A stretch of DNA of 52,492 nucleotides from a virus (lineage: Duplodnaviria > Caudoviricetes), in IMG/VR virus record IMGVR_UViG_3300027770_000074, positions 1-52,492 of that record. The stretch is one strand, 5' to 3'. The notes under the pieces are model-generated. The model worked only from the letters and a program-made list of their open reading frames with translations. It searched no databases and was not told the origin of the DNA. Each line of letters starts with the position of its first letter. The stretch's first letter is position 1. The translations under genes and the position numbers were made by a program. Positions 7,811 through 28,962 of this stretch are shown here, piece by piece.

Positions 7811-7812
7811 AA

Positions 7813-9396: not shown

Positions 9397-9415
9397 ATAT
9401 CCCTAATCTTTTTTA

Positions 9416-9424
9416 GATATATAA
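9416..9424 (+). promoter_or_regulatory. Putative late promoter GATATATAA
   Basis: Intergenic, about 36 bp upstream of the S1-like gene. Confidence 0.5.
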
Positions 9425-9460
9425 AGGGATATTTTTTCATTAACTTTAAAAAAACAAAAA

Positions 9461-10621
9461 ATGAACGACTTTCAAGTTGAAAACTTTGATTGGACTTTAC
9501 CGAATAAAAGAGCGGTAAATAAAAAAATTAAATCACCTGATGATTCTAAAGTTTATTGCCACGAGTCCTATGCTCAGGAATTAAGTAATCTTTATTTCTC
9601 TATCCATAGAAATGAAAATATAAGTGAGGGTAAGGATTTATTAGAAGGCGAGATGTACCAGTGTAAAATTACACATATCTCTAAAGACGAAGCACTTGCT
9701 CAGACCGTGTCTGGACAAACTGTTTATATAGATATCAGAAAAGAGCTAAGAGATGCTCAAAAATTTAATCTACAAAACGTAGATTTTAAAATTGATGACA
9801 TAGTAAAGGTGCGTGTTAGGAAAACCGGTGGATCTTATTTAGGATCTATGGTAGAGTGCTTTATGCAGAGTGTTAAAGCAGAGTTATTTGAGCAAATACG
9901 TCAAGAAAGTACTGCTTATACCGTTAAAATCGAAAGTGTTAATAAAGGTGGCTATATAGTGGATCTCTCTGGTATTAAATGTTTCTTACCTGGATCTTTG
10001 GCTGCAGCAAACAGGATAAAAGATTTTGATTCATACATCGGAAAGGAGATCCAAGTTATGATCGAGGGTTATGTTGAAGCTAAGGATATTTTTATAGTTT
10101 CTTATAAAAAGTATATCAATAAGATAATGCACTCTAAAATACAAGAGCTTGATCTGACTAAAAAATACAAAGGAACTGTAACAGGAACTAGCGAATTTGG
10201 TGTGTTTGTTGAGTGGGAAGAAATTTATACTGGATTAATACATAAAACAGAATTTGAAGGTGAAGGTCATGTTTTAAACTTCATCCCAGGTGATGAAATC
10301 GAATTCTACATCAAGGAGATTAAGGAAAAAAATAGATTAACACTAACATTAGAGCAACCTTTAGAAAGAAATGTGATATTCTCTGACTTGGAAAAACAGG
10401 TGAATGATGGAATATCCGAAGAATTTATAGCAAAAATTAAACACAGAAGAAAAAATGGAGCTTTGGTAGAAATTATTTCTTTGGGAGTTATGGCTTTAAT
10501 CCCGCAGGATAGACTGGAGAAGAAATACAAAAATGCTAAAGTTGGTGATGAGATAGAAATTCGTGTTTATGAAGTCGACCCTATAGCAGGAAAAATATTT
10601 GCACATCCGGTAAATGAATAA
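9461..10621 (+). CDS. rpsA: Ribosomal protein S1 (bS1)-like protein with about four S1 domains
   Basis: VNKGGYIVDLSGIKCFLPGSL...IKDFDSYIGKEIQV...IVSYK resembles bS1 domain 2. YKGTVTGTSEFGVFVEW..YTGLIHKTE..PGDEIEFYIKEI is a classical S1 domain. There is a further domain at the C-terminus (GVMALIP...VGDEIEIRVYEVD) and a degenerate one at the N-terminus. Confidence 0.8.
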   Translation: MNDFQVENFDWTLPNKRAVNKKIKSPDDSKVYCHESYAQELSNLYFSIHRNENISEGKDLLEGEMYQCKITHISKDEALAQTVSGQTVYIDIRKELRDAQKFNLQNVDFKIDDIVKVRVRKTGGSYLGSMVECFMQSVKAELFEQIRQESTAYTVKIESVNKGGYIVDLSGIKCFLPGSLAAANRIKDFDSYIGKEIQVMIEGYVEAKDIFIVSYKKYINKIMHSKIQELDLTKKYKGTVTGTSEFGVFVEWEEIYTGLIHKTEFEGEGHVLNFIPGDEIEFYIKEIKEKNRLTLTLEQPLERNVIFSDLEKQVNDGISEEFIAKIKHRRKNGALVEIISLGVMALIPQDRLEKKYKNAKVGDEIEIRVYEVDPIAGKIFAHPVNE

Positions 10622-12017
10622 CAGTAATCATTTTGATACTATGCATGCTTTGAGCTCTTCTGTTATAGGATTCGAATTTGAATTTTATACAGATATGCTC
10701 AAAGGGCGTGTTGCGGATGAGCTCGAGAAATTACTGAAGAAGAAGGTGGTGGTTTCGGAGAAGTACCATTCAAAAACACCTATAGATAGGAATACATTTA
10801 AGCTCGAGCCTGATTATTCGGGTGGAAGTAAAATGGTGGAATTTATTACCGGCCCATTACCATATGACGAGGCAATTCCGATTATGATCAAAACCCTAAA
10901 ATGGATTGATGAAAACGGATGGACTAACGATAGATGCGCATTTCAATTCTCAATTAGCTTCGATAAATTCAGACCTGATATAAAAGATAGAATGGAAAAC
11001 TTAGATAAACTAAAGTTTATTTTAGGTTTGGATGAAGGTAGAATTTATGATAAATTTGGTAATAGAGCTAAAAATGTATATGCCAAATCTATAAAGAGAG
11101 TAGTTCCTAGGAATAGGTTTTCTATACTTGAAAACATTACCTCTATTGATCCGAGAATGTTTAAAGTTCCAGAGGACAAATACTATGGTGTGAATTTTAC
11201 CAAGTTAAAGGAAGGTTATCTTGAAATAAGATATCTAGGGAATAGGGATTATCAGAAAAAGATCAAAGAAATAAGAGAGATCGTAGATTATGTTATATTG
11301 TATCTCTATGATATACTTTCTAGAAGGATCTCAGGATATACTAAAGATGATGTTGCAAAGCTCCAGGTAATGATGAACGACTATGCTAAAGTTGTAAGAT
11401 CTTTTAACAATCCCGAATTCTTTTTTAGGAACTACCCCAACTTTCATCTTTTTGTTGATCTTAAGGGATGGGACGAAAATATTAGATCCTATTTTCCGGT
11501 GATTAAGAATAAAGTTTTTGATCTTATTGTTGAGGGTAATATAACCTCTTGTTATTTTAACTATGACACTACTACTGGGAGATATCAAGTAAAAGAAGCA
11601 AGGAGTAGAGATGCTTTTATTATAGAGGACGTTGATCTAATTCTAAGCGATGTTAAAAACGGTCTTATAGTTAATTGCAATCTTTATGATTGTGAAATTA
11701 AGAAATCGCATCTTGATAATTGTCAACTTCTCTCAGGTACCACTGTTTCCTCGTCTAAACTTAAAGCTACTAAAGTTGATTACACAAATACACTTAAGGA
11801 TTGCTTTATAGATTGTGAGGGAAAAAATTTAAACTGCAAAATAGAAGGTGGCGTTTTAAGAGGTGGTACCGTTGGTGAATATGCTGAGATAAGTGATGAT
11901 ACCATGAAGGTAAAGGGATGGGACGAGCTTAGAAAGCAGAGATTTATCTCAGATAAAAGACTTAAGGATTTGAACGATTCATCCCATATACCAAAGTTCA
12001 AAAACATGAACTTTTGA
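10614..12017 (+). CDS. Putative amidoligase (COOH-NH2 ligase, GS/GCS-fold) with C-terminal beta-helix-like repeats
   Basis: Ordered motifs GFEFEF, EPDYS, VEFITGP, CAFQFSIS, KYYGVNF, YLEIRY. C-terminal ~90 aa shows 5-6-residue periodicity (IVNCNLYDCEIKKSHLDNCQL...). Confidence 0.7.
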   Translation: MNNSNHFDTMHALSSSVIGFEFEFYTDMLKGRVADELEKLLKKKVVVSEKYHSKTPIDRNTFKLEPDYSGGSKMVEFITGPLPYDEAIPIMIKTLKWIDENGWTNDRCAFQFSISFDKFRPDIKDRMENLDKLKFILGLDEGRIYDKFGNRAKNVYAKSIKRVVPRNRFSILENITSIDPRMFKVPEDKYYGVNFTKLKEGYLEIRYLGNRDYQKKIKEIREIVDYVILYLYDILSRRISGYTKDDVAKLQVMMNDYAKVVRSFNNPEFFFRNYPNFHLFVDLKGWDENIRSYFPVIKNKVFDLIVEGNITSCYFNYDTTTGRYQVKEARSRDAFIIEDVDLILSDVKNGLIVNCNLYDCEIKKSHLDNCQLLSGTTVSSSKLKATKVDYTNTLKDCFIDCEGKNLNCKIEGGVLRGGTVGEYAEISDDTMKVKGWDELRKQRFISDKRLKDLNDSSHIPKFKNMNF

Positions 12018-12027
12018 TTTGACCCAA

Positions 12028-12037
12028 AATATATAAT
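12028..12037 (+). promoter_or_regulatory. Putative late promoter AATATATAAT
   Basis: In the 25-bp gap upstream of the neck gene. Confidence 0.45.
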
Positions 12038-12042
12038 ATCCT

Positions 12043-12840
12043 ATGATACTAGATGCTTTAATAAAAGAAATTGAGGATGCGTTATCATTTAGCTGTGCAC
12101 TCCCGTATAATCTTAATAGAAGTGAGATAGAAAGAATTATAGGAAGGGCTAAAGCTTGGATGTACGATAACTACCAATATGCTGCAGAGGACAGAGTTTT
12201 CGTGATACAGAAACAAATTTTTGATAACAGGAATTTTCTTTCTACACGTCAAATAAGACTGCCCGATTCTATAGTTAGTATCTACGATGTTCGAGATGTC
12301 GGGGGATCTGGGATATCAGGAAATCCAGATAGGGATTTTGGAGATTCTAAGCTACTTGGATCTGAACTTCTTTTATCACCCTTCGTTGGAGATAACCTTG
12401 TATATAGAACAGTGATGTATTCCTATTTTGATTTGGCAAGGGCTTATATGTTGAACAGCTATGCTTTTAAATGGAATAAAAATACAAAAAAACTTACCAT
12501 TCTAGGTAGAGACCCTGGAAGATCCGGGGGTAGCAATCAATCAGCGAAGTCTCAGCAGGCACAGGGATTTTCAGGTGGAGGTGGTTATGACGTAGCGATT
12601 AGATGCTATGTTGCTATAAACGATGAGGATTTATATAACGATGAACTCTTTGTTAGATATTGCATAGCTAAATGTAAAATAGCATTGGCGCAAATGCTTG
12701 GTGTTTTTTCTTATAATTTACCGGGAGGTGTTCAGATTAATGCTTCCGAAATAGGTAATCAAGGTGCAACAGAATTACAGGAGGTTATGGATATGATAAA
12801 CGGCGAAAACACTCCTTCTTATTTCTTACAGTGGAATTAA
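12043..12840 (+). CDS. Neck / head-tail adaptor protein, T4 gp13-like
   Basis: C-terminal FVRYCIAKCK...LGVFSYNLPGGVQINASEI...EL matches the gp13 family pattern (Y..A..K...G....LPGGV.ln). Confidence 0.8.
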   Translation: MILDALIKEIEDALSFSCALPYNLNRSEIERIIGRAKAWMYDNYQYAAEDRVFVIQKQIFDNRNFLSTRQIRLPDSIVSIYDVRDVGGSGISGNPDRDFGDSKLLGSELLLSPFVGDNLVYRTVMYSYFDLARAYMLNSYAFKWNKNTKKLTILGRDPGRSGGSNQSAKSQQAQGFSGGGGYDVAIRCYVAINDEDLYNDELFVRYCIAKCKIALAQMLGVFSYNLPGGVQINASEIGNQGATELQEVMDMINGENTPSYFLQWN

Positions 12841-12861
12841 TTTACAATACATAGACCCAAA

Positions 12862-12891
12862 AATAAAGGCCAGGATATCCTGGCCTTTATT
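12862..12891. terminator. Bidirectional intrinsic terminator (perfect 30-bp palindrome)
   Basis: AATAAAGGCCAGGATATCCTGGCCTTTATT is its own reverse complement, has a GC stem with A/T flanks, and lies between convergent genes ending at 12840 and 12909. Confidence 0.85.
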
Positions 12892-12908
12892 GCAATCTAA
12901 AAAATGTT

Positions 12909-13475
12909 TTATGCTAATCTGAAAATTCTATAGAATTTTTTATCTCTGTTTGTAGCACAGATTCTAATTCTGTAAGATTCAAACTCTTTTAAAACTAAGT
13001 GTTTGGTTACGTGTGAAAGATTTCTAGGTACTACAAAAGATTGCCCAACATTCATAGATTCCAATAGAATCCTAAGCTTCTCTCTTGCCATTAGATTTTC
13101 TGTTCTTCCAGATCTTGAAGGTAAAGGAATACCCGTTTCTAGTTTAAAAGTTTGAACAGTTTGAACAGTTTGCATTTGACCTGAGAATGCTTCAGTTTGC
13201 TGTGAAATCTGAGATACTGGATTAGACGTCTCTAATTTTTTAGCGTTAGATCTTACGTCTCTTCCAAAAGCTCCTTCAATTTTTAGAACATACTTTCTAA
13301 AGACGATTGAATCCTTAGTTCTTCCTAATCTTCCCGCTACTACGGATTTAGGAATTTTCTGTTCTACAGCCAACCTGAGGAAATTATCCTCTTCTGGTGT
13401 CCATGCTTTGTGTTTGTTCCCCTTTGATGATGTGCGGCCAAGGGGCTTGCCGTTTTTTGAAAATTTTCTTGCCAT
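12909..13475 (-). CDS. Putative DNA-binding regulator: N-terminal Myb/SANT-like HTH plus a small C-terminal domain
   Basis: KAWTPEEDNFLR...VAGRLGRTKDSI is Myb-like. C-terminal KLETGIPLP...LESMNVGQSFVVP is a motif type seen in small phage DNA-binding proteins. Very basic protein. Confidence 0.7.
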   Translation of the reverse strand: MARKFSKNGKPLGRTSSKGNKHKAWTPEEDNFLRLAVEQKIPKSVVAGRLGRTKDSIVFRKYVLKIEGAFGRDVRSNAKKLETSNPVSQISQQTEAFSGQMQTVQTVQTFKLETGIPLPSRSGRTENLMAREKLRILLESMNVGQSFVVPRNLSHVTKHLVLKEFESYRIRICATNRDKKFYRIFRLA

Positions 13476-13501
13476 AAAAATATAGGTTTTAAATTATGAT
13501 C

Positions 13502-13509
13502 CAAATATA
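13502..13509 (-). promoter_or_regulatory. Bacteroidota-type housekeeping promoter -7 element (TAnnTTTG)
   Basis: Minus strand reads TATATTTG 26 bp upstream of ATG 13475. No clear -33 TTTG. Confidence 0.5.
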
Positions 13510-13625
13510 TGGAACCTTTTCGAGAAAAAAAAATTATAAGTGTTTTTTCCTTAAAAAAATCAAAAAAAATATTTTTTTGTTTAAATAAATTGGCACCTCC
13601 CTTTTTATCCCCGTCAGGGACAAGG

Positions 13626-13635
13626 GATATATAAT
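13626..13635 (+). promoter_or_regulatory. Putative late promoter GATATATAAT
   Basis: 14 bp upstream of the gp25-like gene, at the start of a new + strand unit. Confidence 0.55.
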
Positions 13636-13649
13636 CAGAATATTAAAAG

Positions 13650-14021
13650 ATGAGAGAAATCTACAACAGGGATCCCGATGATCCAAAATACAATCCATTT
13701 CAACTTGAATCACTAGATCCTGTTGAGATTTGTGTTGGCCAATTAAAGATGGTATTACTTACTAACAAGGGCGAGGTTTTAGGTGATCCCAAATTTGGGT
13801 TAAATATGGAGGATCTTATCTTTAATCTTGGTCTATCTGAGTCTAGTATAAAAAAAGAATTAGACCTTTTTTTAAAAACGTATGTTCCCCTTTTTGGAAA
13901 GCTCGGTGGTACATATACGCTTGAGTTTTATAAAGGAACCGAAAGGGATATAGCAACCCTAGATTTTTCTATACCCTCAGACGGGGGTTTAAGCCCAGTA
14001 GTAACTTTAAGAATAACCTAA
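13650..14021 (+). CDS. Baseplate wedge subunit, gp25-like
   Basis: LKMVLLTNKGEVLGDPKFGLNMEDLIF is the gp25/GPW signature; directly precedes a gp6-like gene. Confidence 0.85.
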   Translation: MREIYNRDPDDPKYNPFQLESLDPVEICVGQLKMVLLTNKGEVLGDPKFGLNMEDLIFNLGLSESSIKKELDLFLKTYVPLFGKLGGTYTLEFYKGTERDIATLDFSIPSDGGLSPVVTLRIT

Positions 14022-14028
14022 ATTTAAT

Positions 14029-15756
14029 ATGAATATTTACCGGAAGAATAACATCCTAATAAATGGATTACTGAACGACACCTTTGTATTTTTACAAGAT
14101 ACGTATAATCAGACTGTTAATCTTTTTACAGTAGCTTCAGCTTGGGGACAGGTCTTGTTCGTATTGCAGAATCTTTCACAGATGATTCTTTACTTTATAG
14201 AGGATTCTATAACTGAACTTAATATAGAGCAAGCATCCAGAGATTATTCTGTTCGAAGTCTTGCTAGAATATCAGGGTACAATCCTGCAAGGTCTATGGC
14301 TGCTCAGGGAGAAGTCCAAATAGGGTGGAATAGAACAAACTCCGATGCCGGAGGAGGAGCGATAGTTTTATCTAATTACACACAAATAAAAAACCAGAAC
14401 AACGGTAAAAATTATTCATTAATACTATCCTCTCAAAAAATAACAATACCACTTACCGGCGGATCTAGTCCGATAAGAGTGAAGATAGCGGAGGGTGCTT
14501 TTCAAACACAGGTAGTAACCGGAACAGGTCAGTTACTTCAAAGTTTTAATTTACCAAGTCAGTCCGGATCATATATTGATCAATTCTATGTTGATGTTTA
14601 TGTGAATGAAGAGAGATGGAAAAGATACGAGTCTCTTTATGATATCCCTCTCAACGGAAAGGGATATCTAGTTAGAAGTGGAATTCAGGAGGGACTTGAC
14701 ATTTACTTTGGCAATTCTTTCTTTGGCGCGATTCCGCCAAGAGGATCAAGAATAAGAATTCAATATCTTCAAAATACTGGCGCTGCTGGAAACACAAAGG
14801 ATAACAAGCAAAGTCCTCTTAGTTATAGATGGGCAGATCCAGGAACAGATCTTTTTGGAGCGGAGGTTGATTTAAATGATTATATCCTTATAACGTCTAC
14901 GCTTAATCCAATGTTTGGTACTAATCCAGATTCTATTAATCTCATAAGATTGGTTGCACCTAAAACTAGTAGATCTTTCGTTTTTGCAAATGCACAGAAC
15001 TATGAGATATTTTTGGATAAGTTGCAAATATTTTCTCAGATCCAGGCTTTTTCGACCTTTGATGACGAGTACCTAGACGATGATAATATTGTCTACCTAT
15101 ATTTAATTCCGGATATCACTTTAAATATTTCTTCCAATGAGGATTATTTTAGCATACCATTAAATCAATTCCTGTTAACCTCTGATCAAAAAGCAATGAT
15201 TCTTAATTTGCTAGAGCAATCAGGATCTATGATTGCAACAACTGTGGTTAAGATAGTAGAGCCAGTAATTAGTAGATACACCGGTAATGTGATTATGACG
15301 ATCTTTGCTGGATTTGATCCGGAAACTATAAAAAGGGAGATTAGGAAAAGAATTTCAGAATACATGCTTAATGTGAAAAGACGAGACACCATACCAAAAT
15401 CTGACATAATTGCTATTATAGAAGGAATAGACGGTGTCGACTCAGTGAATTTCTTTTTTGTTGGTCAAAAAAATGAAGCTAACCAAACAATCATGCAGAA
15501 TATGACCAACGTTTCCACAGTTCAGCAGGATCAGCTTTTGGGACTAAACGAGTTCGGAGATATCGTAATAGGTAGAAACGAGCTTGTGGTACTTAGAGGT
15601 GGATGGTCCGATAGGAACGGAACTCTTTTCACTGAAAGTATAGTTGAGGGAAAACCTGGGCCACTTAATATTAGTATTTCTGCTATCGTTCAGCCTAACT
15701 TTAGAGCGGAGCTTAATGCTGAGCTTAAGGCCGCAATTCTTAAATCACAAGATTAA
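14029..15756 (+). CDS. Baseplate wedge subunit, T4 gp6-like
   Basis: E..I..A....SVRSLARISGYNP....AA; IYFGN..FGAIPPRGSRIRIQYL...G..GN; D...IR..AP......NYE. All are gp6/baseplate-J motifs. Confidence 0.85.
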   Translation: MNIYRKNNILINGLLNDTFVFLQDTYNQTVNLFTVASAWGQVLFVLQNLSQMILYFIEDSITELNIEQASRDYSVRSLARISGYNPARSMAAQGEVQIGWNRTNSDAGGGAIVLSNYTQIKNQNNGKNYSLILSSQKITIPLTGGSSPIRVKIAEGAFQTQVVTGTGQLLQSFNLPSQSGSYIDQFYVDVYVNEERWKRYESLYDIPLNGKGYLVRSGIQEGLDIYFGNSFFGAIPPRGSRIRIQYLQNTGAAGNTKDNKQSPLSYRWADPGTDLFGAEVDLNDYILITSTLNPMFGTNPDSINLIRLVAPKTSRSFVFANAQNYEIFLDKLQIFSQIQAFSTFDDEYLDDDNIVYLYLIPDITLNISSNEDYFSIPLNQFLLTSDQKAMILNLLEQSGSMIATTVVKIVEPVISRYTGNVIMTIFAGFDPETIKREIRKRISEYMLNVKRRDTIPKSDIIAIIEGIDGVDSVNFFFVGQKNEANQTIMQNMTNVSTVQQDQLLGLNEFGDIVIGRNELVVLRGGWSDRNGTLFTESIVEGKPGPLNISISAIVQPNFRAELNAELKAAILKSQD

Positions 15757-15758: not shown

Positions 15759-16304
15759 ATGGCAACTTTAAAACAAGAAAGATTTTCACCGTTTTTTGCT
15801 GATCCTGAGGGTGGTCTGAACTACAATAAATCCCTTGTAATTCCTTCCACAGCAAACACAACATATTACAATCCCGCTGAGGTTTACGCTACCATACAGG
15901 AAGCTTCAGATCGTGCTTATAATATAGGGTGCTCAGGGTACAGACAAGTTTTAGTCTCCTCACAGGGGGAGTATAAATATTCTCCATGCACAAATTCTTC
16001 AGATTTCAAAATATTAATGAAAGAAATGCCAAGCTTTTCTGTAGAAAGAAGGTATTATCAATACGACCCCCGGGAAAATATTTATGATATAAGGGATAGC
16101 TTCAACGACGATCAGCCTAATGGCTTTGATTATAAGGGGAAGATTTTAAATAGAACACTTTCAAATGTAATGTTTAGAGATCCTATTAAAGATGGTATTT
16201 TGCAATATTTCGAAAGAGTAGTGTATGCATTGGTTGAAACAACAAAACAAATTAAAAACTTTTTCAATTACACCGTTAAGGGAAATAACAGAAGAGTATT
16301 CTAA
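15759..16304 (+). CDS. Hypothetical baseplate-region protein with a small Cys-containing domain
   Basis: 181 aa. YATIQEASDRAYNIGCSGY...YSPC resembles the short 'T..EA...A...GC.G.H....MPC' (DUF3721-like) module, with the His not conserved. Confidence 0.55.
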   Translation: MATLKQERFSPFFADPEGGLNYNKSLVIPSTANTTYYNPAEVYATIQEASDRAYNIGCSGYRQVLVSSQGEYKYSPCTNSSDFKILMKEMPSFSVERRYYQYDPRENIYDIRDSFNDDQPNGFDYKGKILNRTLSNVMFRDPIKDGILQYFERVVYALVETTKQIKNFFNYTVKGNNRRVF

Positions 16305-19300: not shown

Positions 19301-21352
19301 GAATATGACGTTAAATGCGGCGTGTATGATGGCTTTAATGTTCAGAGTTTATCCATATTGCCTAGAGCTATAACTGTTGCACCTAAAATAATAGAGATAG
19401 ATTCATGGACACGCTATCGTGAGGTTGAAGATTATTTATGGAGGACGACAACAAGAAGCTGGGAGGTTTATCAATCAATCTGGGAATACCCAGCTGAGGG
19501 AGAAACTATGGGGGAACTGCAGAAGACAATTCCTGCTGAGATTTTAGATTTTGCTACCTATGGAAATAAGTCTCAAGAGGGACAAGATGTTTATGTAAAA
19601 GTAGAATCAGCAGCTGCTGGTGCAACTGGGTACATCTCATTTACCCAGAACAATTATCAAATTACAGATATCTCTTCTTTTGAAATTATATCAGGCGGAC
19701 AATATGGATTTGCAACAATTACAACATCAGTCGCTCATAATTTAGAGACTGGTTATGAGGTTAGAATATTTGGATCTATAGATCAAATTAACGGTAGATG
19801 GAATGTGATAGTTCCAAGCGGATCTACAACTACATTCAAAATTCCTCTTGTTTTACAAAACACCTGGAACGGAATACTTTTCCAATCATCTCCAAACAAA
19901 CTCTACGTTGACACCTCAACAATTAGTGGATACCCTAACATGTATTTTACAGGTTCTGGGGTTATAAGTGTCTCTGTTGACGGAAGGGAGATAGGATCAG
20001 CAGATGCTGGTGATTCTTTATATAGAACTGCTAATGCAATAGTCTCTGCTATTAACTCGTATATTACATATCCAGATTACTTTGCTTCCTGTGTTGATCC
20101 TTCGCAAGATCCAGTAACTGTTTTGATATCAGCGCCAAGTGATCTTGGTGCAACTCAAAATGGAGTTCCTATTAGTTTTACTCTTACAGGATCACTTTCC
20201 GAAACCCCTTCATCCCCCAATCTTGACTTTGGTGTTAATCCAGAGGACAGCTTTGTTTTCTGGAGTGAATCTCAGACAGATCTGCCAAATGCAAATCTAA
20301 AATACTGGGGAAGTAAAAGACTTACGTGGGAAATTTTTACAAACAACACATGGGAGGATGCTTACGCCCATGGATGGTATGATTTTGAGTATAACAATGA
20401 TTGGCTTGGCGGGTATGAGCTACATAATATACAACCTGGTGATTATATCAAATTAAGCACAGGAAACGAATCATTCCCGTTCCCAATAGGAGCAACAATT
20501 CAGCCTGGGGTTTCGCCACTTACTGTTCAAAATGTTGCAGATCAATTAAATGCCTCAGATGATCGGTATATTACTGATTTCTATTACAGACCCATCCCTA
20601 ATGAATCTGGGGATCTGCCTATGGATTCACCTCCAATAAATCTGGTTGTGTCCAATTTTGCAGTGCCTGTTCCTTCTCTGCCAGCGCCAGTTTCTTTGCT
20701 TGGCGGATCTTCGTTGTTGATACCGATAATTGGTGTTAGTGGGCCGAGTTTAACAACAACAACCACTACAACATCAACTTCGACAACATCAACTTCGACC
20801 TCGACATCGACAACCTCGACCTCGTCGACTTCGACTTCGACCTCGTCGACTTCGACTTCTTCGACTTCGACCTCAACCTCGTCGACCTCAACCTCGTCGA
20901 CTTCAACTTCGTCGACTTCAACTTCGACCTCGTCTACATCGACATCGACATCCACGTCTACATCTACGTCGACCTCAACGACAACTGAGTTTATAGTTTT
21001 CGGGGAGCTTGTGATAGACAATCAGGTAGGATTTGGTCCAATTATTACTAACTTGTCTCAATATACAACTTATACCACTGGTTTCTCATTCCCTGTAAAC
21101 TCTGGTAGCTCGGAAACAGGGACATTAACTGCATCAGGTCCACCTGCCCCTTGGAGAATTACATATACCCCAGGATCTGCAGGAACTTTTAATTTTGAAG
21201 TATTTAAGGCAGCAACATTAGGAGGAGCATGGATTTCCCAGGGAAGTGCAACAGATAATGCACCTAGCGGTGCCTCAAGAAATGTTAATCTAAGTGGTTT
21301 GGTTAGCTGGGTTACTGGAAATAGTATCATGATAGTACTCACCCAGCCCTAG
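16310..21352 (+). CDS. Large multidomain baseplate wedge protein (gp7-like) with C-terminal mucin-like Ser/Thr stalk
   Basis: 1680 aa, two genes downstream of gp6. Contains GAYRGLIAAIKFFGY, a GSGY-type Gly-rich insert (18797-19018), a PKD-like stretch (GEYDVKCGVYD), a 78-aa S/T tract and a terminal ~120-aa beta-rich domain. Confidence 0.6.
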   Translation: MSNFFYRRLNFFNKRGNPLNFDYIGPTGATELESTFIYLSNSSVTSIGDINVNSFDLEPATLTLYFEDLNGFTIIDWANEVQTFLQQGAEVFLNGRVAGQQQFKGKIFSITPSGSTYIIQFFPGKSEGQRIISNGNKIYFNTTYNFRPGGYYKGNIYFDPVSSGLYENEQIFIVQEFYDQNTSSFNYGLPHTGITGATAGKWRTRWYNNKYGETDVSEIIFTYQIYDDISGGDGQPLIISYPNIVYSVDVDANDTYYGASGGYIQTSSVSSETLSISVALNCGDLNGNIYERKLIVEDITGGTGSAPIKVIEVDFYGEIVGEDPRFDVMLKNIGRAFYPSDSVILRDHDPAEPSPNYLEINDKRKELLVAGEEIFPYAGAYRGLIAAIKFFGYQDLRIKEYWLNLEYRRLQVESPLQKNKQFLDEIKAQQSINGYTQSIQIADVLDNPNSGKYRLTQTYGPDKEGNYVLDISSEESLVPSRTYKKTSLFGLYYDLNKDNGDVDEYGYPVVIDAFKFTQEEVLLKLFALKERLKRDYLPLNARIVDITGEGIYFEVYNTRAWTDVMQRPQIETGIHFDIVPNPDFGFIEDLRNFSIRPSQTSIQTPESYFNSFSSNVTVQGGTGSGVYFTLTGATGPNPSLSVTSGYSYTFTIGTTGFTFYITTDSTLSTVISPVGLENNGATAGGDPLQWYVNPIQTTPVYYFIAENTSLNGIVNVSPSTLSDFGNIINPLDFAQNYSVSQNDSLLTAINQFYDLKQQGEIVELGDGKYDPPALIDPDTGLFYRTPIGMPVVLEMLVDRWTWDEFNINWSSVNIPAFKTGDRVQIKKIDASISLGISGGQISSATINGSGLGYATTPTLIITGGGGAGGAVSATVTGTRITSISILSVGSGYTFTPNLSIPSPSGDFGTVTAVSYSTGVYTVLLDSGSTSTFDSTELFATSQDYSLLNWKNIDFSNLVDIEWTVTKSATQPGSPYNFVFRGSIVDFYKLAHFVPFTGEYDVKCGVYDGFNVQSLSILPRAITVAPKIIEIDSWTRYREVEDYLWRTTTRSWEVYQSIWEYPAEGETMGELQKTIPAEILDFATYGNKSQEGQDVYVKVESAAAGATGYISFTQNNYQITDISSFEIISGGQYGFATITTSVAHNLETGYEVRIFGSIDQINGRWNVIVPSGSTTTFKIPLVLQNTWNGILFQSSPNKLYVDTSTISGYPNMYFTGSGVISVSVDGREIGSADAGDSLYRTANAIVSAINSYITYPDYFASCVDPSQDPVTVLISAPSDLGATQNGVPISFTLTGSLSETPSSPNLDFGVNPEDSFVFWSESQTDLPNANLKYWGSKRLTWEIFTNNTWEDAYAHGWYDFEYNNDWLGGYELHNIQPGDYIKLSTGNESFPFPIGATIQPGVSPLTVQNVADQLNASDDRYITDFYYRPIPNESGDLPMDSPPINLVVSNFAVPVPSLPAPVSLLGGSSLLIPIIGVSGPSLTTTTTTTSTSTTSTSTSTSTTSTSSTSTSTSSTSTSSTSTSTSSTSTSSTSTSSTSTSTSSTSTSTSTSTSTSTSTTTEFIVFGELVIDNQVGFGPIITNLSQYTTYTTGFSFPVNSGSSETGTLTASGPPAPWRITYTPGSAGTFNFEVFKAATLGGAWISQGSATDNAPSGASRNVNLSGLVSWVTGNSIMIVLTQP
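20753..20986 (+). repeat. Low-complexity tract encoding 78 consecutive Ser/Thr residues
   Basis: Degenerate TCGAC[TCA]/TCAAC[TC] hexamer repeats in frame within 16310..21352. Confidence 0.95.
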
Positions 21353-21374
21353 TAATTTTCTTTAAATTTTTTTT

Positions 21375-22340
21375 ATGAAAAGAATTATTTTCATTAGCGT
21401 ACAACCGGATGATTTTTATTTTTATTGGCAGGTTGAGGTTTTTATACACAACGCAATAAAGAACGGGATAAACCCAAAAAATATCCAGATACTTTTTTCT
21501 TGCGTCAAAGGACCTAAACAGGAGCTAATTGATCTCTCTAAAAAATATAATTTTGTAAAATTTTATTTCTATGAGAGAAATGAGTTTATTAACTACGGAT
21601 ACGTTTCAGCTTTAAGACCTGATGCTTTGGAGCAGCATTTTTCTAAGTATCCAGAACTGAGGGGCGAAGTTCTTTTTTATCATGATTCTGATATAATTTT
21701 CAAAGAACTACCCGACTTTGATTCTATGCACGATGATAACTTTTGGTATTTGAGCGACACAGTTTCCTATATAGGTGCAAACTATATTAAATCTAAATCT
21801 GATCAGCTGCTAACAGATTTATGTGATATTACTGGTGTTAAGAGGGAAATTGTTGAAAGTAATGAGAATAATTCTGGGGGAGCTCAGTATTTAATGAAGG
21901 GTGTTAATGCTTCTTATTGGTCTGATGTGAAAGAAACCTGTTTAAATCTTTATAAATACATGGCTGAGAGGGAGGAAGAAGAAAGAAAGACACTGACTCC
22001 AGAGCAGCTTGAAACATATAATCCAATACAAAAATGGTGCTCTGATATGTGGGCAGTTTTATGGTGTGCCTGGAAAAGAGGTTACCAAACAAAGATATCA
22101 AGAGAGCTTGGCTTCAGCTGGGGATCTAGCGATCACAAAGAATGGGATTGTCATAAGATTATGCACAATGCAGGGGTTCTTGAAAAAGATAAAGATCGTA
22201 AATTTTTCAAGGGTGAATTTATAAACAAATCACCATTTGATCGCGACCTAAGCTATGTCGAGCCTTATTCGAACAGCTGGCACTATGCCCAAGCAATAGA
22301 GTATGCAAAAATTCAGAGGAAAGAAATTTTCGGGTCATAG
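21375..22340 (+). CDS. GT-A fold glycosyltransferase, similar to peptidyl-Ser/Hyp O-glycosyltransferases (SERGT1/HPAT-like)
   Basis: DXD motif in LFYHDSDIIF. N-terminal YFYWQ, central YVSALRP, GGAQYLM, WCSDMWA and IMHNAG occur in the same order as the YFDWQ / Y...NKP / DAD / W.SEMY / H motifs of SERGT1/HPAT. Confidence 0.7.
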   Translation: MKRIIFISVQPDDFYFYWQVEVFIHNAIKNGINPKNIQILFSCVKGPKQELIDLSKKYNFVKFYFYERNEFINYGYVSALRPDALEQHFSKYPELRGEVLFYHDSDIIFKELPDFDSMHDDNFWYLSDTVSYIGANYIKSKSDQLLTDLCDITGVKREIVESNENNSGGAQYLMKGVNASYWSDVKETCLNLYKYMAEREEEERKTLTPEQLETYNPIQKWCSDMWAVLWCAWKRGYQTKISRELGFSWGSSDHKEWDCHKIMHNAGVLEKDKDRKFFKGEFINKSPFDRDLSYVEPYSNSWHYAQAIEYAKIQRKEIFGS

Positions 22341-24190: not shown

Positions 24191-27100
24191 ATGCCTAATG
24201 CTTCTTTATACATAAACCAAATTGACACAGATAATGAATTCTATGTTTGGGGATCAGGTAATAATATCTCCCTTTTCACTGAGGGTGCCTGGCAAACATA
24301 CGATTACACAAATTCTGTGGTCCCCTCAGATTATGGAGGATCCTATTATCTAGACACAAGGTGTCTTTCAATAGATCCTGAAGATATTCTTTGGTGTGGA
24401 GTAGCACAAGGACCAACATCTGGATTCAACGAGGTTGCAGTTTTCAGCATAAACACGAATGATGTCTATGAAGGCCAAACATACTTATTCTCAGATATTT
24501 CAAATTTCAACGGGGTTCAACAAGAAGTTTGCACTATTTACGCTTCTCCCTATGGAAGTGAGGTTTTAGCTTTTGTTTGTCCGTTAAACGGGATTGGCGG
24601 TACCGCTGGTATAACTGCATATACTAAGTTTTATGGTGTAACCGGTGGAAGATTATTTTATCTCAATTTATTCACCGGCGAGTGGAATGAGAATGTGCCA
24701 AATTATACATGGCCTCACATTTACGATATTAAGGCTAAAGGTTTTGACGGTAATAGATACCTTTATTATCTTGGTACTGAAGAGGGATTATATGAGATAT
24801 CTCCAGAAATACTTGAAACTTTTCAACTGAACTATGGTGGTGAGACTATTAAACAGGCACAGATCTTTAACACTAACACCTCTGGTATAATCTCTGACAA
24901 GGTTTACTGTATAGATCTTGATGAGGACTCCAATTTGTGGGTAGGTACTGATCAAGGTCTTTCTTTTTATAATGGTTACAAGTTCTGGAATTATGGTACA
25001 TCAGGACCAGTAACCTCCATAAAATCTAGACCTAATGGACATGTATTTTACGGGATGGGCGACGGGGAATTAGGACAGGGGACTGGATTATGGCATTTCA
25101 ACGGAAGTACACATACTCAATTTACTCCTGCTAATTCTGATCTAGGTAATTCCAATGTGTTAGGGCTAGGATTGATTGGACATAATATTCAACAGGGAGA
25201 TTTATTAGCAACCGAAAACTCATTATGGGTTTTGGAAAATAACAACCTATCCCTATTCGAATACGATATCCCACACGTTTACGCTTCCTCGAATTATGCT
25301 GGAGCTACTGGATGGAATTTTGTTTATTATTCGCCAACAGGAGCCACAAGTGCACCTCTTCCTAAAGTAAATAAGTACACGTGGGATTATCCCGAATGGA
25401 GGGTATATCAAGATGAGTATCTTGCACAAAAATTTCCAGGACTTGACCCTAGAAATCTTTTCTTAACCACTAGTCTCAAGGAGATAGCAAACGGAAGAGC
25501 TGGAAGACAGCCATGGTGGAATGACTACCCTATTCCAAGTTTCGAGCAGGAACAACAATTGGAAAGTTTTGTAACCCCTTCTTGGGTTTCGGATCTTACC
25601 GTTTACCAGGGAACCTCTGGTTCGACCGGATCTGGTGTTTTCTTAGAAACACAAACTGTTTTGAACATTAACGGGGTAGATAAGCTATACATTGGCGGAT
25701 ACCTTAAAGGAAATATTACAGTTAAACTTGGTTATTATAATGATTCAGAGGAGGCATTAGTTTCAAACACTAATCCAACTTTCCTTGGGAGAGCACAACC
25801 TGATCAATCATCTAGCGATCCTGTAGATATGGGATTTGTTGTTTGCTATAACGAATCTGGTGCTGTTGAATCTTTTGTAAATTTTCCTGGTTATTCAACT
25901 AGAATACAATCTATCTTTCCAAGCAAAGATGGTAGCTCAATCTATGTTACTGGGACTTATTTAATGCTTATAGAAAACGGACCTTTTATATTCGAAGGCA
26001 CGATAGATAATGTGATTAATTCCGGAGGTCCTACCGGTGCTCCTGCTGGATTAAATACAGATTTATATCCTGGATCAACAAGTGGTACCTTCCCTTGGAT
26101 ATACAGTGCAACTGGAGCTACCGGTTCAACATATGTCTTCAGTTACGGAACAACAGGGCCAACGTCTGGTGTTATCTATAATTATTCACAAGGGTCTACG
26201 GCTTCATCGCCTGGCCTATGTGATTTCAATGACATTTCTAATCCTGCAAGCACCTACGATGAAATTTATACCGTCAGACTTAATTTCGCAGATGTTAATT
26301 TTACATGGTGGGAGATAGATTATACACAGATTCCAACAGGCTACGTTTTAGAAATACAAGACACCACTAGCCCATCAACATACTCCTATTTCCATATCAA
26401 TAAAATATACCTGAATGAAAGTGCAGGTATCTTTGAATCTTCCCCTCAGACAGCAAACTTTGATGTGATATATTCGGGAGGATCCGGATCTCAATCTATA
26501 CCAGCTAGCTCACTTAGGTTTAGTTTCGTCTCGTATTTAAATGGGACATTCCCTCTTCTTCCATCAATAGATCAGATGATGTCTGATATAGATAATGGCT
26601 ATTGGCACCCTGGATTTTTTGGAGCTCAGATAGATAAGGATCTTGGTGACTTTAGTACTTACACAGGACTCACATCAGGTAACTATCAATCAGAAATAGA
26701 TAAAGGATACAAGTTCTTAAACTTCAGACAATTCCCATCGGAGGGACAGTATGATCAATCTGTATTCGATTCTCTATACTCTATTGGAGACGCTGGAGAC
26801 TATTCTTTAAACGTATCGATAGCTTCATTTGCAGATCAAATAACACCTGAAATCCCTAATTTTTGGACATTAAAAAACGAATGGGATAGAACTTCAGATC
26901 TTACAACAACGCTCGATAGATTAGTAGATCCTGATTATTTGTCAGTTTCTCAAACAACAGGGTTACTCTCTTTTATTAGATTAGATTCTTCGAATTTTTC
27001 TCTTCTGAGTACCGTTTCAGCTGCTGGAGGTACCACTGGTTTTGTTGATTATAGTATAACCTCAGTAGAATCACTTTCTACTAACAACACAACTTTAATC

Positions 27101-28303
27101 ACTGGATCATCAAACTATTCCTTTAGCTTTGGAGGGATTAATCTATCTCAGGGTTCTACTGGTTCAACCGGCCCTTATTATTTAATTGTAGATAGTTCAG
27201 GTAACGGAGTTACCGGAGGATTTATTCCTAATTATGTTGATATAGATATCCCGATAAAAGCATCTAAAACTGAATCCACTTATTTTGTAACTACCGTTGT
27301 TGGATCCTCTGGATATTATTTTGGTGACTATTTTACTGCTGGGACAACCGGAACATACTTCTTGACTGCTGAAATTACTGAGCAGGGGGTGTCTAAAAAT
27401 ATTTTTGCACCGAAGTTAGAGGTTGTATCGGGGAACGGTCAGAATGTTATAAATATTCTAGACCAGAAAGTTTTACCTGATGGGCTATTAGTTTTTGCAT
27501 ACCAATCCAATACCAAGCCTTATATAAACATCTTCAAAGCAGATCAAACTGGTAGGATCACAAATCAAAAAGATTTTGGGGATCTAAACTGTGAGCCTGA
27601 ATCTTTTTCTTTGACCTTTGATAATCAATCAAACGTTTATATAGCAGGATTTAATTCAACAGGTTTAACCGGGGATTCATTTATTGTTTGTGGACCGACG
27701 TCAGCCTTCGTTCTCCAGTCTGAAAAATACAACTTCGACCCAGGGATAAATTTGGGCGATATTATTTCAAGGCCAGGATCTGGTGCATGGACTTGGTGCG
27801 ATGTACACTCCTCTGAAAATTACTTAGACCTTCCGTTGATGTCAACTGTTGTTTTTAGTAATTACAATTCTTCTATTTACGGAAAATCAAATAACACATG
27901 GTCTTTAATAGATTCTATTACAGGTAATGATCTATTGACAGTGAAATTAACCCCCTATTTCATTTACACGTTTACTGAACCTGGATATTTCACAATTTAT
28001 AACATGGTAGAGGATTCACAGGGTAATGTTTACGAGATATCTAAACCCGGATTTATAGAAATAAAAGATCACAAAATTAAAACTCCAGAAGATCCTAGAC
28101 CTGATTTTGTTGATTCCCGAGACTATGGATTCCCAGACCCTCCTTTTGAGTCTAGAGATGTTCAGTCACAAAAATTAGCCAAACAACTTTTAGAGGACGA
28201 AGCTCAAATTTTGAATAACAATAAACAGCCATTCGGATCGAGCCTTATAATTTTTGATGACCCTGATGCAACATTCAGGGATTTGAGTGATAATACAGTT
28301 TAA
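24191..28303 (+). CDS. Large putative virion protein with beta-propeller repeats (two-component-regulator-propeller-like) and a C-terminal PKD-like domain
   Basis: NTNTSGIISDKVYCIDLDEDSNLWVGTDQGLSFYNG and FTPANSDLGNSNV are Reg_prop-like. Further propeller-like blades follow (LTFDNQSNVYIAG). YTFTEPGYFTIYNMVEDSQGN is PKD-like. Confidence 0.65.
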   Translation: MPNASLYINQIDTDNEFYVWGSGNNISLFTEGAWQTYDYTNSVVPSDYGGSYYLDTRCLSIDPEDILWCGVAQGPTSGFNEVAVFSINTNDVYEGQTYLFSDISNFNGVQQEVCTIYASPYGSEVLAFVCPLNGIGGTAGITAYTKFYGVTGGRLFYLNLFTGEWNENVPNYTWPHIYDIKAKGFDGNRYLYYLGTEEGLYEISPEILETFQLNYGGETIKQAQIFNTNTSGIISDKVYCIDLDEDSNLWVGTDQGLSFYNGYKFWNYGTSGPVTSIKSRPNGHVFYGMGDGELGQGTGLWHFNGSTHTQFTPANSDLGNSNVLGLGLIGHNIQQGDLLATENSLWVLENNNLSLFEYDIPHVYASSNYAGATGWNFVYYSPTGATSAPLPKVNKYTWDYPEWRVYQDEYLAQKFPGLDPRNLFLTTSLKEIANGRAGRQPWWNDYPIPSFEQEQQLESFVTPSWVSDLTVYQGTSGSTGSGVFLETQTVLNINGVDKLYIGGYLKGNITVKLGYYNDSEEALVSNTNPTFLGRAQPDQSSSDPVDMGFVVCYNESGAVESFVNFPGYSTRIQSIFPSKDGSSIYVTGTYLMLIENGPFIFEGTIDNVINSGGPTGAPAGLNTDLYPGSTSGTFPWIYSATGATGSTYVFSYGTTGPTSGVIYNYSQGSTASSPGLCDFNDISNPASTYDEIYTVRLNFADVNFTWWEIDYTQIPTGYVLEIQDTTSPSTYSYFHINKIYLNESAGIFESSPQTANFDVIYSGGSGSQSIPASSLRFSFVSYLNGTFPLLPSIDQMMSDIDNGYWHPGFFGAQIDKDLGDFSTYTGLTSGNYQSEIDKGYKFLNFRQFPSEGQYDQSVFDSLYSIGDAGDYSLNVSIASFADQITPEIPNFWTLKNEWDRTSDLTTTLDRLVDPDYLSVSQTTGLLSFIRLDSSNFSLLSTVSAAGGTTGFVDYSITSVESLSTNNTTLITGSSNYSFSFGGINLSQGSTGSTGPYYLIVDSSGNGVTGGFIPNYVDIDIPIKASKTESTYFVTTVVGSSGYYFGDYFTAGTTGTYFLTAEITEQGVSKNIFAPKLEVVSGNGQNVINILDQKVLPDGLLVFAYQSNTKPYINIFKADQTGRITNQKDFGDLNCEPESFSLTFDNQSNVYIAGFNSTGLTGDSFIVCGPTSAFVLQSEKYNFDPGINLGDIISRPGSGAWTWCDVHSSENYLDLPLMSTVVFSNYNSSIYGKSNNTWSLIDSITGNDLLTVKLTPYFIYTFTEPGYFTIYNMVEDSQGNVYEISKPGFIEIKDHKIKTPEDPRPDFVDSRDYGFPDPPFESRDVQSQKLAKQLLEDEAQILNNNKQPFGSSLIIFDDPDATFRDLSDNTV

Positions 28304-28305: not shown

Positions 28306-28962
28306 CTAGGTATCCTTTAATACTTGAAGAATCTCTTCAACTATCGGATCCCTATGATTTGTTTTAAGACTGATGACAGAAATTCCCTCTATAAAGCTTA
28401 ATTTTTTTGATAACCAATCAAATCCACTAAGCCTTTTATCTCGAAGATCTATCTGAGAGTTATCACCGACAAAGATCATTCTAGCTCCGAAACACAAACG
28501 TGTTATAATAAGCTCCAATTGACTCTGTGTAATATTTTGAGATTCATCTATAACAACACAGCAATCAGAGAAGTTTCTTCCTCTCATAAACCCAATAGGT
28601 ATAACTTCAATATTTCCCTCAGCTATTTCTTTGTCTATCTTTTCCTTATTGTAAAGCATGTACATGTTATCGTAGATTGATGCAGTATATGGTGCTAACT
28701 TTGCATCTTTATCTCCTGGTAAAAATCCTATATCCTCACCTGCTGTAACCGCTGGTCTGGTCAGGATTATCTTTTTAACATCCTTTTTAAATAACATATC
28801 AAGAGCGATCTGTGCTGCTAATAACGATTTACCACTTCCAGCTTGTCCTTTCAGAAAGGATATCTTGGAATTAAGTATTTTTTCTTTAGCCTCTTTTTGT
28901 TCCTCGTTTAAAGTAACATTAAATCTAATCGAGTTCTTAGGTTTTTTGACCTGTGTTTGCAT
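28306..28962 (-). CDS. phoH: PhoH family ATPase
   Basis: Walker A GQAGSGKS, plus IILTRPAV, IGFLPG, FMRGRNF, IDESQN, TRL, GDNSQID and HRDPIV. Confidence 0.95.
   Translation of the reverse strand: MQTQVKKPKNSIRFNVTLNEEQKEAKEKILNSKISFLKGQAGSGKSLLAAQIALDMLFKKDVKKIILTRPAVTAGEDIGFLPGDKDAKLAPYTASIYDNMYMLYNKEKIDKEIAEGNIEVIPIGFMRGRNFSDCCVVIDESQNITQSQLELIITRLCFGARMIFVGDNSQIDLRDKRLSGFDWLSKKLSFIEGISVISLKTNHRDPIVEEILQVLKDT

Follow-up and report, generated by a model that had tools for sequence, protein, structure and literature searches.

The window analysed here is the whole of a viral record of 52,492 bases (IMGVR_UViG_3300027770_000074; Duplodnaviria, Caudoviricetes), which corresponds to ~19% of the genome according to the CheckV estimate. 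It encodes a putative glycosyltransferase of 321 amino acids (aa) directly downstream of a gp7-like baseplate protein that carries a long stretch of Ser and Thr residues near its C-terminus. Judging from the sequences, this enzyme probably O-glycosylates the Ser/Thr tract of the upstream baseplate protein, and the two would form an enzyme-substrate pair of the virion. Such a pair had been proposed in a preliminary description of the same DNA, and it is supported by a structure search and by a comparison of gains and losses among related phages, both of which came out in its favour.

The gp7-like baseplate protein and the adjacent glycosyltransferase

The baseplate protein is composed of a core, a Ser/Thr stalk and a C-terminal tip (Table 1). 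The stalk contains 37 Ser and 41 Thr; the preliminary description had given it 78 uninterrupted residues starting at 20753, which is exact, this position being the first Thr codon. Under a strict criterion for tracts (at least 13 Ser/Thr in 15 residues) it is the only one in the 52.5-kb window. Its DNA consists of imperfect tandem repeats of TCN/ACN codons, and a 145-aa open reading frame (ORF) on the minus strand (20584..21021, VEVDVD...) is a shadow frame of this repeat, not a gene. The 61 residues ahead of the tract contain 11 Pro (18%, vs 5.4% in the whole protein); the Pro-rich segment described earlier is a real enrichment, but a modest one that is also found in relatives without the stalk.

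The assignment of this protein to gp7 comes from its position downstream of the gp6-like gene, with a single 181-aa ORF between them, and from a weak match to phrog_438 ('baseplate wedge subunit', E = 7.8e-6) that covers residues 815-895 only. The gene order in T4 is gp6 followed by gp7. A Pfam scan of the 1680-aa protein found nothing except a sub-threshold SOG2 match over the Ser/Thr tract. The core is 53-68% identical to its relatives in tblastn segments, and in the relatives that lack the enzyme it ends at about residue 1471-1478. The tip, previously described as a beta-rich domain of ~120 aa, has 121 residues and was modelled from its single sequence with AlphaFold2 as an all-beta fold of nine strands, with a mean predicted local distance difference test (pLDDT) of 68. 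This confidence is moderate and the best structural match (Z 7.7, YajI and ToxA) is at background level by the tool's own rating, so the tip was given no fold-family name. No homologue of the tip was found among the proteins of 924-2940 aa or in 180 loci (L001-L180; best E = 2.4), and the tip sequences of related phages are different and unrelated to each other.

Table 1. Positions in the window of the stalk protein, the enzyme and their neighbours.
Feature	Positions	Strand	Remarks
gp7-position baseplate protein, 1680 aa	16310..21352	+	ORF with core (~residues 1-1478), Ser/Thr stalk and tip; proposed acceptor
Ser/Thr stalk, 78 uninterrupted Ser/Thr (aa 1482-1559)	20753..20986	+	Longest Ser/Thr run of the protein
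C-terminal tip, 121 aa	20987..21349	+	All-beta sandwich in the AlphaFold2 single-sequence model
GT-A glycosyltransferase, 321 aa, phrog_4417	21375..22340	+	AlphaFold2 pLDDT 97.1; proposed peptidyl-Ser/Thr O-glycosyltransferase
DxD motif, D104-S105-D106	21684..21692	+	Presumed metal / nucleoside diphosphate-sugar site; D104 and D106 invariant
H264-N-A-G267 motif	22164..22175	+	H264 and G267 invariant (48/48); H264 presumed third metal ligand
181-aa ORF	15759-16304		Between the gp6-like gene and the 1680-aa ORF
gp6-like wedge protein			Upstream of the 1680-aa ORF; phrog_219, E = 7e-32
gp5-like OB-fold protein			Phage_base_V match
601-aa ORF			Homologue is the gene next after the gp7-like gene in enzyme-less relatives
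Tail-fibre-like proteins and tail tube protein			Also encoded in the window

The enzyme gene starts 22 nt after the gp7-like stop codon (gap 21353-21374) and is, as had been noticed from the sequence, the very next gene; no excess of terminator-like or promoter-like sites was found between the two. It is flanked by the gp7-like gene and by further large structural-type ORFs. The 321-aa protein has no match in Pfam (E ≤ 0.1) or NCBIfam, and none by sequence in the PDB. In a profile search of the PDB the sole matches were to TAL-effector repeat proteins, by way of a 29-residue stretch; no stretch passes alone, and these matches were treated as spurious. The sole family match is phrog_4417 (E = 3e-64), annotated as 'unknown function'. 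The family comprises 1208 proteins at E ≤ 0.001 in a 90%-clustered collection, all of them annotated as 'hypothetical protein' at most, and 819 representatives after clustering at 50%.

In an alignment of 48 homologues (32-81% identical), the residues W18, Y76, D104, D106, Y132, G169, Q219, M225, F247, H264, G267, F277 and K279 are invariant, and D104 and D106 are also invariant in 85/85 fused homologues. All the motifs listed beforehand (YFxWQ / Y...RP / DSD / WxxDMW / H) coincide with conserved positions of this alignment. The AlphaFold2 model built with the homologue alignment (predicted template modelling score, pTM, 0.93; pLDDT in Table 1) is a single Rossmann-like alpha/beta/alpha domain, with residues 5-11 as its first core strand, and it superposes on solved GT-A enzymes over residues 1-321. 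The earlier recognition of a DXD glycosyltransferase among structural genes therefore agrees with the predicted GT-A fold and with the invariance of both aspartates.

Foldseek gave 191 PDB matches at E ≤ 0.001. Among the matches listed, all are glycosyltransferases, mostly of the GT8, GT24 and GT6 types, including WbbM (E = 5.5e-8), the catalytic domain of UGGT, the Skp1 alpha-galactosyltransferase AgtA, GT8 proteins, LARGE1, XXYLT1, glycogenin, LgtC and GlyE. A VIA-align run against 48,161 chains placed glycogenin first (3u2t, Z 14.8, 227 residues at 3.5 A), with UGGT (6fsn, Z 14.5), AgtA (6mw8, Z 14.3), LgtC (Z 13.9), WbbM (Z 13.8), LARGE1 (Z 13.6) and GlyE (Z 13.1) next, and the capsid glycosyltransferase A64R of PBCV-1 at some distance (2p6w, Z 10.6, 190 residues). 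Sequence identity to the solved GT8/GT24-type neighbours is 6-12%, and there is no Pfam GT8 match.

Retaining families of the GT8 type bind an Mn-uridine diphosphate-sugar through the DxD motif and a His. In the phage enzyme, D104/D106 and H264 fit this pattern of metal and nucleotide-sugar binding, H264 presumably being the third metal ligand as in GT8-type enzymes. The top structural neighbours belong to retaining CAZy families, which suggests by analogy that the phage enzyme could also have retaining chemistry. The longest hydrophobic run in the protein is nine residues, so the enzyme is predicted to be soluble; the membrane anchor expected of plant hydroxyproline arabinosyltransferases (HPAT) was not found in its 321 residues.

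The motif series had been taken as a parallel to HPAT and to the plant peptidyl-serine galactosyltransferase SGT1. At the level of the fold this parallel stands, since the nearest named family in a structure search of the ESM Atlas is PF23452 (HPAT). Residues 1-321 align to two eukaryotic clusters, one of Streptophyta and one of Chlorophyta, in which 100% and 99% of the members are PF23452 (TM scores 0.75 and 0.74, with 288 and 289 residues aligned). These scores, obtained with predicted models on both sides, are far above those of any solved structure (TMq at most 0.49). Among the 30 named clusters closest to the enzyme in language-model features, 20 have PF23452 in at least 10% of their members and six have DUF7164 (PF23741). 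No solved structure of GT95 or GT96 turned up in the PDB searches. Family membership was not recovered: HMMER does not assign the enzyme to HPAT, so the link to HPAT/SGT1 is a fold-level one. The structure search as a whole thus gave a GT-A fold, GT8/GT24-type enzymes as the best solved neighbours and HPAT as the nearest named family.

Co-occurrence of the enzyme and Ser/Thr tracts

Gain and loss of the stalk and the enzyme were compared in the lineage of the window using 18 loci collected through their gp6-like protein (68-78% identical), of which four were too short and two break inside gp7, leaving 12 usable loci. Three of them (L084, L085 and L100) have the enzyme and a Ser/Thr stalk with a tip, and the other nine have neither. 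In the enzyme-less loci the gp7-like protein stops at ...GGSGLLIAGF.., where the protein of the window runs on into the stalk, and the next gene is a homologue of the 601-aa ORF of the window. No homologue of the enzyme was found on the four longest enzyme-less contigs (71-173 kb), in a search that did find its positive control.

A tree of the gp7 core was built from 15 sequences, after adding the gp7-like genes of the enzyme set described below and removing four duplicates. The states of stalk and enzyme agree in all 15 gp7-like proteins (both present in nine, both absent in six), in line with a joint gain and loss of tract and enzyme, which the preliminary description had proposed to test. 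The tree requires at least two changes of the enzyme state, on well-supported branches, and the stalk follows each time. Wherever the tract is present in this lineage it carries a folded domain behind it (n = 9/9). Stalk, tip and enzyme make up a portable cassette attached behind the gp7-like core; sister phages lack it as a whole.

Two variants of this arrangement were observed. The gp7-like proteins at L003:4404-9926 and L020:4534-9921 have two stalk-plus-domain units in series, showing that their C-terminal module can be duplicated or extended. In two other loci an extra gene lies between the stalk protein and the enzyme (L085:17129-18124, 332 aa; L100:17114-17770, 219 aa), without Pfam match in either case.

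The association was then evaluated in phages at large, using the best 80 IMG/VR loci with a homologue of the enzyme plus two annotated phages (n = 82) and, as controls, 80 PhoH-anchored loci (1.2 Mb, one PhoH lineage), with only the longest non-overlapping ORFs considered in each locus. Strict tracts were found in 62 of the 82 enzyme loci and in one of the 80 controls, and runs of at least six Ser/Thr in 79 and 11, respectively. The directly upstream gene on the same strand carries a Ser/Thr run in 60/82 enzyme loci. The sole control with a strict tract is also the sole control with the enzyme, leaving 0/79 among controls without it. Fisher's test for strict tracts gives p = 2e-27, for loci that are not independent of each other.

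When their tracts were masked, the 117 proteins with Ser/Thr runs located within three genes of the enzyme fell into 24 similarity groups, indicating that the enzyme tracks the tract and not one protein family. Among ten examples of recurrent neighbour families that were scanned, seven had no Pfam match and the others matched GT2 (L027), Amidoligase_2 (L022) and the SprB repeat (L075). The candidate tagged proteins seen include capsid, tail tube, baseplate, SprB-repeat and Ig-domain proteins, and the carriers of the family are phages of Bacillota and Bacteroidota and large aquatic myoviruses.

Among cultured phages, a tblastn search through 50,697 phage records brought up 77 that encode a homologue, mostly Lactobacillus, Enterococcus, Staphylococcus, Lactococcus and Clostridium phages; no Mycobacterium phage is listed among the 77. 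In each of the seven annotated isolates, the homologue is preceded by a gene that ends Thr-rich or bears Ser/Thr tracts. In the six from Gram-positive hosts this gene ends in a Thr-rich tail, and in five of these six a major capsid or tail protein has such a tail. This gene encodes the major tail protein in Enterococcus phage phiFL1A, whose major head and major tail proteins end in runs of 5-21 Thr; the tail tube protein, with Thr runs at its C-terminus, in Clostridium phage phiCTP1; and the capsid protein in Lactococcus phage CHPC836, with Thr runs at the ends of both its capsid and its major tail protein. In Lactobacillus phage iLp84 it is a 125-aa, largely poly-Thr protein located after the major head gene, and the major head and major tail proteins have C-terminal Thr runs. 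An Ig-domain protein ending in TTV(K/A)P repeats precedes the homologue in Lactobacillus phage 521B, and two proteins with long Ser/Thr tracts precede it in Chryseobacterium phage MA9V-3. The capsid and tail proteins of the Gram-positive siphophages end in tails of 5-21 Thr with no tip domain behind them.

In Staphylococcus phage RQ1, whose major tail protein ends in Thr runs, the upstream gene is a short Thr-rich ORF overlapping the end of the major tail gene. In this region (L263:6223-6925) the ORF, of 103 aa and nearly all poly-Thr, overlaps the 3' end of the major tail gene in another frame; lying directly upstream of the homologue, it might extend the tail tube protein through a frameshift.

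Mycobacteriophage glycans are reported at the C-termini of capsid and tail-tube subunits (PMC12619734), and the positions of the Thr tails in phiFL1A, iLp84, CHPC836, phiCTP1 and RQ1 mirror these sites.

Relatives of the enzyme were also found in bacteria (127 in a scan of 185,579 species genomes, of which 80 were kept). Forty-nine of the 80 are fusions of at least 420 aa, nearly all from Bacteroidota (Chitinophaga, Pedobacter, Sphingobacterium, Mucilaginibacter), and 31 are single-domain forms, 22 of which have a run of at least six Ser/Thr nearby. The fused forms are poor in tracts, which at first gave the impression of a polysaccharide role; this was countered by their gene context, which resembles that of peptides made on ribosomes and modified after translation (RiPPs). 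LanC-like genes occur in 18/80 bacterial loci, and small ORFs with a double-glycine leader and a core rich in Ser/Thr and Cys in 13/80, vs 0/80 controls. Clusters of this RiPP-like kind with a fused homologue are those at L187, L200, L210, L215, L218, L220, L221, L224, L228, L229, L234, L240 and L249. One of the small precursor ORFs has a weak match to TIGR04149 (radical-SAM-modified RiPP precursor; E = 5e-4, below the cut-off). In the cluster of Chitinophaga niastensis (L187; 6179-6373 (+) together with 6559-14104), the neighbours include LanC-like and GT1 proteins as well as a radical-SAM enzyme.

From their gene content these Bacteroidota clusters look like RiPP clusters, and therefore the family would again lie beside Ser/Thr-rich peptide substrates. 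They may encode glycosylated peptides that have so far not been described. Long forms are also frequent among the 149 representatives listed, 98 of which have at least 400 aa. A Pfam tally of 85 long representatives, in which one protein may count under two families, gave Glyco_transf_7C (n = 11), GT2 (n = 4), GT2_2 (n = 2), GT6 (n = 3), GT29 (n = 1) and GT25 (n = 1). This would fit fusions of an initiating module with an extending one.

Further occurrences were examined at the nucleotide level and in assembled genomes. Megablast of 8.5 kb around the stalk and enzyme against the phage collection gave no match. A 285 kb contig holds a 99%-identical copy of the enzyme, so the phage of the window is probably large. 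Another contig (L181, CAIWBA010000291.1, 254 kb, from a metagenome-assembled genome) has a 58%-identical homologue with a Ser/Thr-tract gene directly upstream; it is binned as an uncultured Bacteroidetes genome, which may reflect wrong binning of a large phage or else point to the host group.

Proposed mechanism and alternative explanations

In the mechanism proposed here, the enzyme would most likely be a retaining GT-A glycosyltransferase that depends on a metal and works, as a soluble protein, in the cytoplasm. With a host nucleotide-sugar as donor, it would transfer the sugar directly onto hydroxyl groups of Ser and Thr in the 78-residue tract, while the virion is being assembled or earlier. 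Transfer to peptidyl hydroxyls is suggested by the genomic context. Dense O-glycosylation would stiffen the tract and make it an extended, protease-resistant and hydrophilic spacer of the mucin type, holding the small, fast-evolving beta-sandwich tip away from the baseplate rim. From the values known for mucins, a 78-residue spacer would be roughly 20 nm long if extended. The result would be the rigid bottle-brush projecting the tip that the preliminary description had suggested. Single sugars would be the simplest guess for the glycan, since no second glycosyltransferase was seen among the scanned ORFs of the window, four fifths of the genome being outside it.

The same family could serve many virion proteins in unrelated phages, including the C-termini of capsid and tail-tube proteins of Gram-positive siphophages. 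These siphophages have a short Thr tail on each of their capsid and tube subunits, and glycosylation of this kind would give them a coat of glycans.

Several results weigh against the proposal that the enzyme glycosylates the tract. No second glycosyltransferase or nucleotide-sugar gene was seen by Pfam among the 23 ORFs of the window, which covers ~19% of the genome. The polysaccharide enzymes WbbM (O-antigen) and LgtC (lipo-oligosaccharide) rank level with the protein-directed structural neighbours, and for this reason the acceptor cannot be named from the fold. Regarding the kinship with HPAT, the PF23452 model (gathering score 23.9 bits) does not match the window protein at E ≤ 0.1; the best result among the 48 homologues is 1/48 at E = 0.23, and a direct search of the window with PF23452 gave nothing at E ≤ 10, in a search in which the control families had no match either.

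Other points concern the association. Only two independent changes occurred in the gp7 lineage (sign test, p = 0.5), a number with which significance is unreachable, and the joint gain and loss is therefore consistent with an enzyme-substrate pair rather than proof of it. The phage loci are phylogenetically non-independent and the controls represent one PhoH lineage. Three of the 82 enzyme loci (L025, L044 and L054) have no Ser/Thr run in the available DNA. In an unfiltered pass, 25/79 controls showed poly-Ser frames on the opposite strand, always at a single fixed position. These are taken to be shadow frames, and they vanish under a filter for shadow ORFs introduced after that first pass; among the enzyme loci the filter takes just one from the strict count (63 before, 62 after, out of 82). 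Finally, 46 of the 49 fused bacterial homologues have no long Ser/Thr run nearby and only three have one, so a long tract is not a universal partner of the family.

Among the alternatives, the one that survives best accepts that the tracts are glycosylated and assigns them another role, namely protection from proteases, from enzymes on the host surface or from recognition by the immune system, a coat for solubility or against aggregation, or a ligand for a lectin of the host or the environment, instead of a rigid projecting stalk. The short Thr tails of the Gram-positive isolates, present on every capsid and tail-tube subunit and lacking a tip, are coat-like, and shielding is reported as a role of mycobacteriophage glycans in PMC12619734. 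The lineage of the window is different, with tracts that always bear a folded domain and that in L003 and L020 come two in series, an arrangement consistent with a spacer. This alternative is possible though not the expected outcome for the stalk, and the roles of coat and spacer are compatible with each other.

A non-protein acceptor is unlikely. The enzyme would in that case modify, for example, teichoic acid, lipo-oligosaccharide or a polysaccharide of the host surface, in serotype conversion or superinfection exclusion, and the tract would be an unmodified flexible linker that happens to lie close by. WbbM and LgtC do stand among the best solved neighbours, and many homologues are fused to domains of the GT2, GT7C and GT6 types that are typical of glycan builders. 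Such an acceptor would leave unexplained the Ser/Thr runs at 79 of the 82 loci, 60 of them directly upstream, as well as the joint loss of stalk and enzyme and the spread of tracts over 24 unrelated protein groups. Moreover, in Gram-positive siphophages the gene follows directly on that for the capsid or tail-tube protein, within the operon for head-tail morphogenesis, and not in a lysogenic-conversion module; the enzyme has no membrane segment; and the fused bacterial forms are in peptide-modifying, not polysaccharide, clusters (two annotated loci).

Adjacency could also be a by-product of shared ancestry or of modular cassette transfer, with no enzyme-substrate meaning. Many of the 82 loci are close relatives, several being near-duplicates (L004/L005, L013-L016), and the independent changes in the gp7 lineage are few. 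We regard this as improbable, given that the tract-bearing proteins belong to unrelated groups, that enzymes only 31-42% identical to that of the window are found across Bacillota, Bacteroidota and aquatic phages, and that tips and intervening genes vary between cassettes. Least probable of all is the glycosylation of phage DNA bases against restriction, as in T4, which is a common assumption for phage glycosyltransferases (PMC12619734 and PMC12801897) and whose base-modification genes could lie in the part of the genome outside the window, but which has no place for the tight link to Ser/Thr tracts, does not fit a family found between structural genes in siphophages of 36-40 kb and in bacterial RiPP-like clusters, and has no DNA-modifying glycosyltransferase among the structural matches listed, the last being weak evidence.

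Beyond the protein pair of the window, a broader proposal can be put forward tentatively, as conceivable but falling somewhat short of what we would expect to hold. The enzymes could form an ancient family of soluble peptide-hydroxyl O-glycosyltransferases, structurally akin to HPAT/SGT1, that operates as a general glyco-tagging system: phage proteins tagged with poly-Thr/Ser would be coated in the cytoplasm in the manner of mucins, Bacteroidota would use the domain, fused to a second glycosyltransferase, for glycosylated RiPPs, and tag and enzyme would move as a cassette. Virion glycosylation would then be common beyond actinobacteriophages and predictable from sequence.

If these readings are true, they would provide a function for a large unnamed family (phrog_4417, with the 819 representatives mentioned above) and a simple signature, its gene beside a poly-Ser/Thr tract, for predicting virion glycosylation, whose range would then take in large aquatic myoviruses as well as dairy phages and phages of enterococci, staphylococci and clostridia. 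They would bear on phage stability and immune recognition in therapy, on host-range modules carried by glycosylated stalks, and on how unexplained densities and mass shifts in virion proteomics are read. Glyco-engineering could profit from an enzyme that is soluble and whose acceptor tag is short and genetically encoded, and the kinship with plant HPAT/SGT1 and the RiPP context in Bacteroidota would be relevant to glycobiologists and natural-product chemists.

Neighbouring genes and comparison with known systems

Nearly every long ORF of the window is on the plus strand. Inside the run of structural genes only two long ORFs are on the minus strand, at 12909-13475 and 28306-28962, the latter encoding a PhoH-like ATPase (phrog_170, E = 2e-61) with relatives (64-91% identical) that are common in IMG/VR contigs. 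Two domains of a 386-aa ORF at 9461-10621 (+), S1 RNA-binding (E = 1e-16) and OB_cyt-4, are unexpected for its location among baseplate and tail genes. A 1370-aa structural-type protein at 24191-28303 (+) matches the 'two component regulator propeller' repeat (Reg_prop, E = 1.5e-6), which suggests a beta-propeller in a tail or baseplate protein.

Among named families, that of the plant enzymes is the nearest by predicted fold. HPAT1-3 (GT95) are Golgi type II membrane enzymes that transfer arabinose onto peptidyl hydroxyproline, SGT1, which galactosylates serine in extensins, belongs to the related family GT96 (PMC8012813), and the GT95 fold is predicted by deep learning to be GT-A-like (PMC8476585). 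Plant enzymes are described as initiating O-glycans on peptide hydroxyls in the repetitive Ser-hydroxyproline tracts of extensins (PMC8012813, PMC4908140). The phage enzyme resembles HPAT1-3 and SGT1 in the predicted fold of the whole protein. It differs in being predicted soluble, whereas the plant enzymes are Golgi membrane proteins, and in its proposed acceptor, Thr/Ser instead of the hydroxyproline used by HPAT; the similarity is undetected by HMMER.

The best solved neighbours, the GT8/GT24-type enzymes (glycogenin, UGGT, LgtC and GlyE; Z 13-15), share the DxD-plus-His pattern with the phage enzyme. Several enzymes of this type have proteins, or glycans bound to proteins, as their substrates. 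GlyE modifies an adhesin with serine-rich repeats in a pneumococcal pathway, where it extends a sugar already present on the protein, whereas the phage enzyme would have to start the chain. A64R of the Chlorella virus PBCV-1 is likewise a virus-encoded, soluble GT-A enzyme that works in the cytoplasm, and it glycosylates the major capsid protein; it differs in belonging to a eukaryotic virus and its structural match is moderate (Z 10.6). The PBCV-1 glycans are N-linked at atypical sites. Glycosyltransferases of glycocin-type RiPPs (SunS-like, GT2) are also cytoplasmic and act on ribosomal peptides; the RiPP-like clusters of the Bacteroidota relatives are reminiscent of them, but the conserved N-terminal domain of the enzyme family has no GT2 match in Pfam.

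The closest functional precedent is virion glycosylation in actinobacteriophages, reportedly described by Freeman et al. in Cell Host Microbe in 2023. In the searchable literature, only some actinobacteriophages have documented glycosylation of their virion proteins, and a search outside subscription papers and supplements found no description of the enzyme family or of poly-Ser/Thr tags on phage proteins. A glycoprotein stain of ten other phages was positive for none of them (PMC12894461). The actinobacteriophage system is reported to be similar in that the glycosyltransferases are phage-encoded and the targets are virion proteins, at the C-termini of capsid and tail-tube subunits. It differs in the enzyme family, consistent with the absence of Mycobacterium phages from the 77 homologue records. 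Here, in addition, the candidate acceptor is a recognizable poly-Ser/Thr tag, the tag of the window lies on a myovirus baseplate protein and bears a tip domain, and the family is taxonomically widespread, with Bacteroidota relatives in RiPP-like clusters. Phage-encoded virion glycosylation itself is thus known, and what would distinguish the putative system described here is an unnamed enzyme family with an HPAT-like predicted fold together with an explicit poly-Ser/Thr tag.

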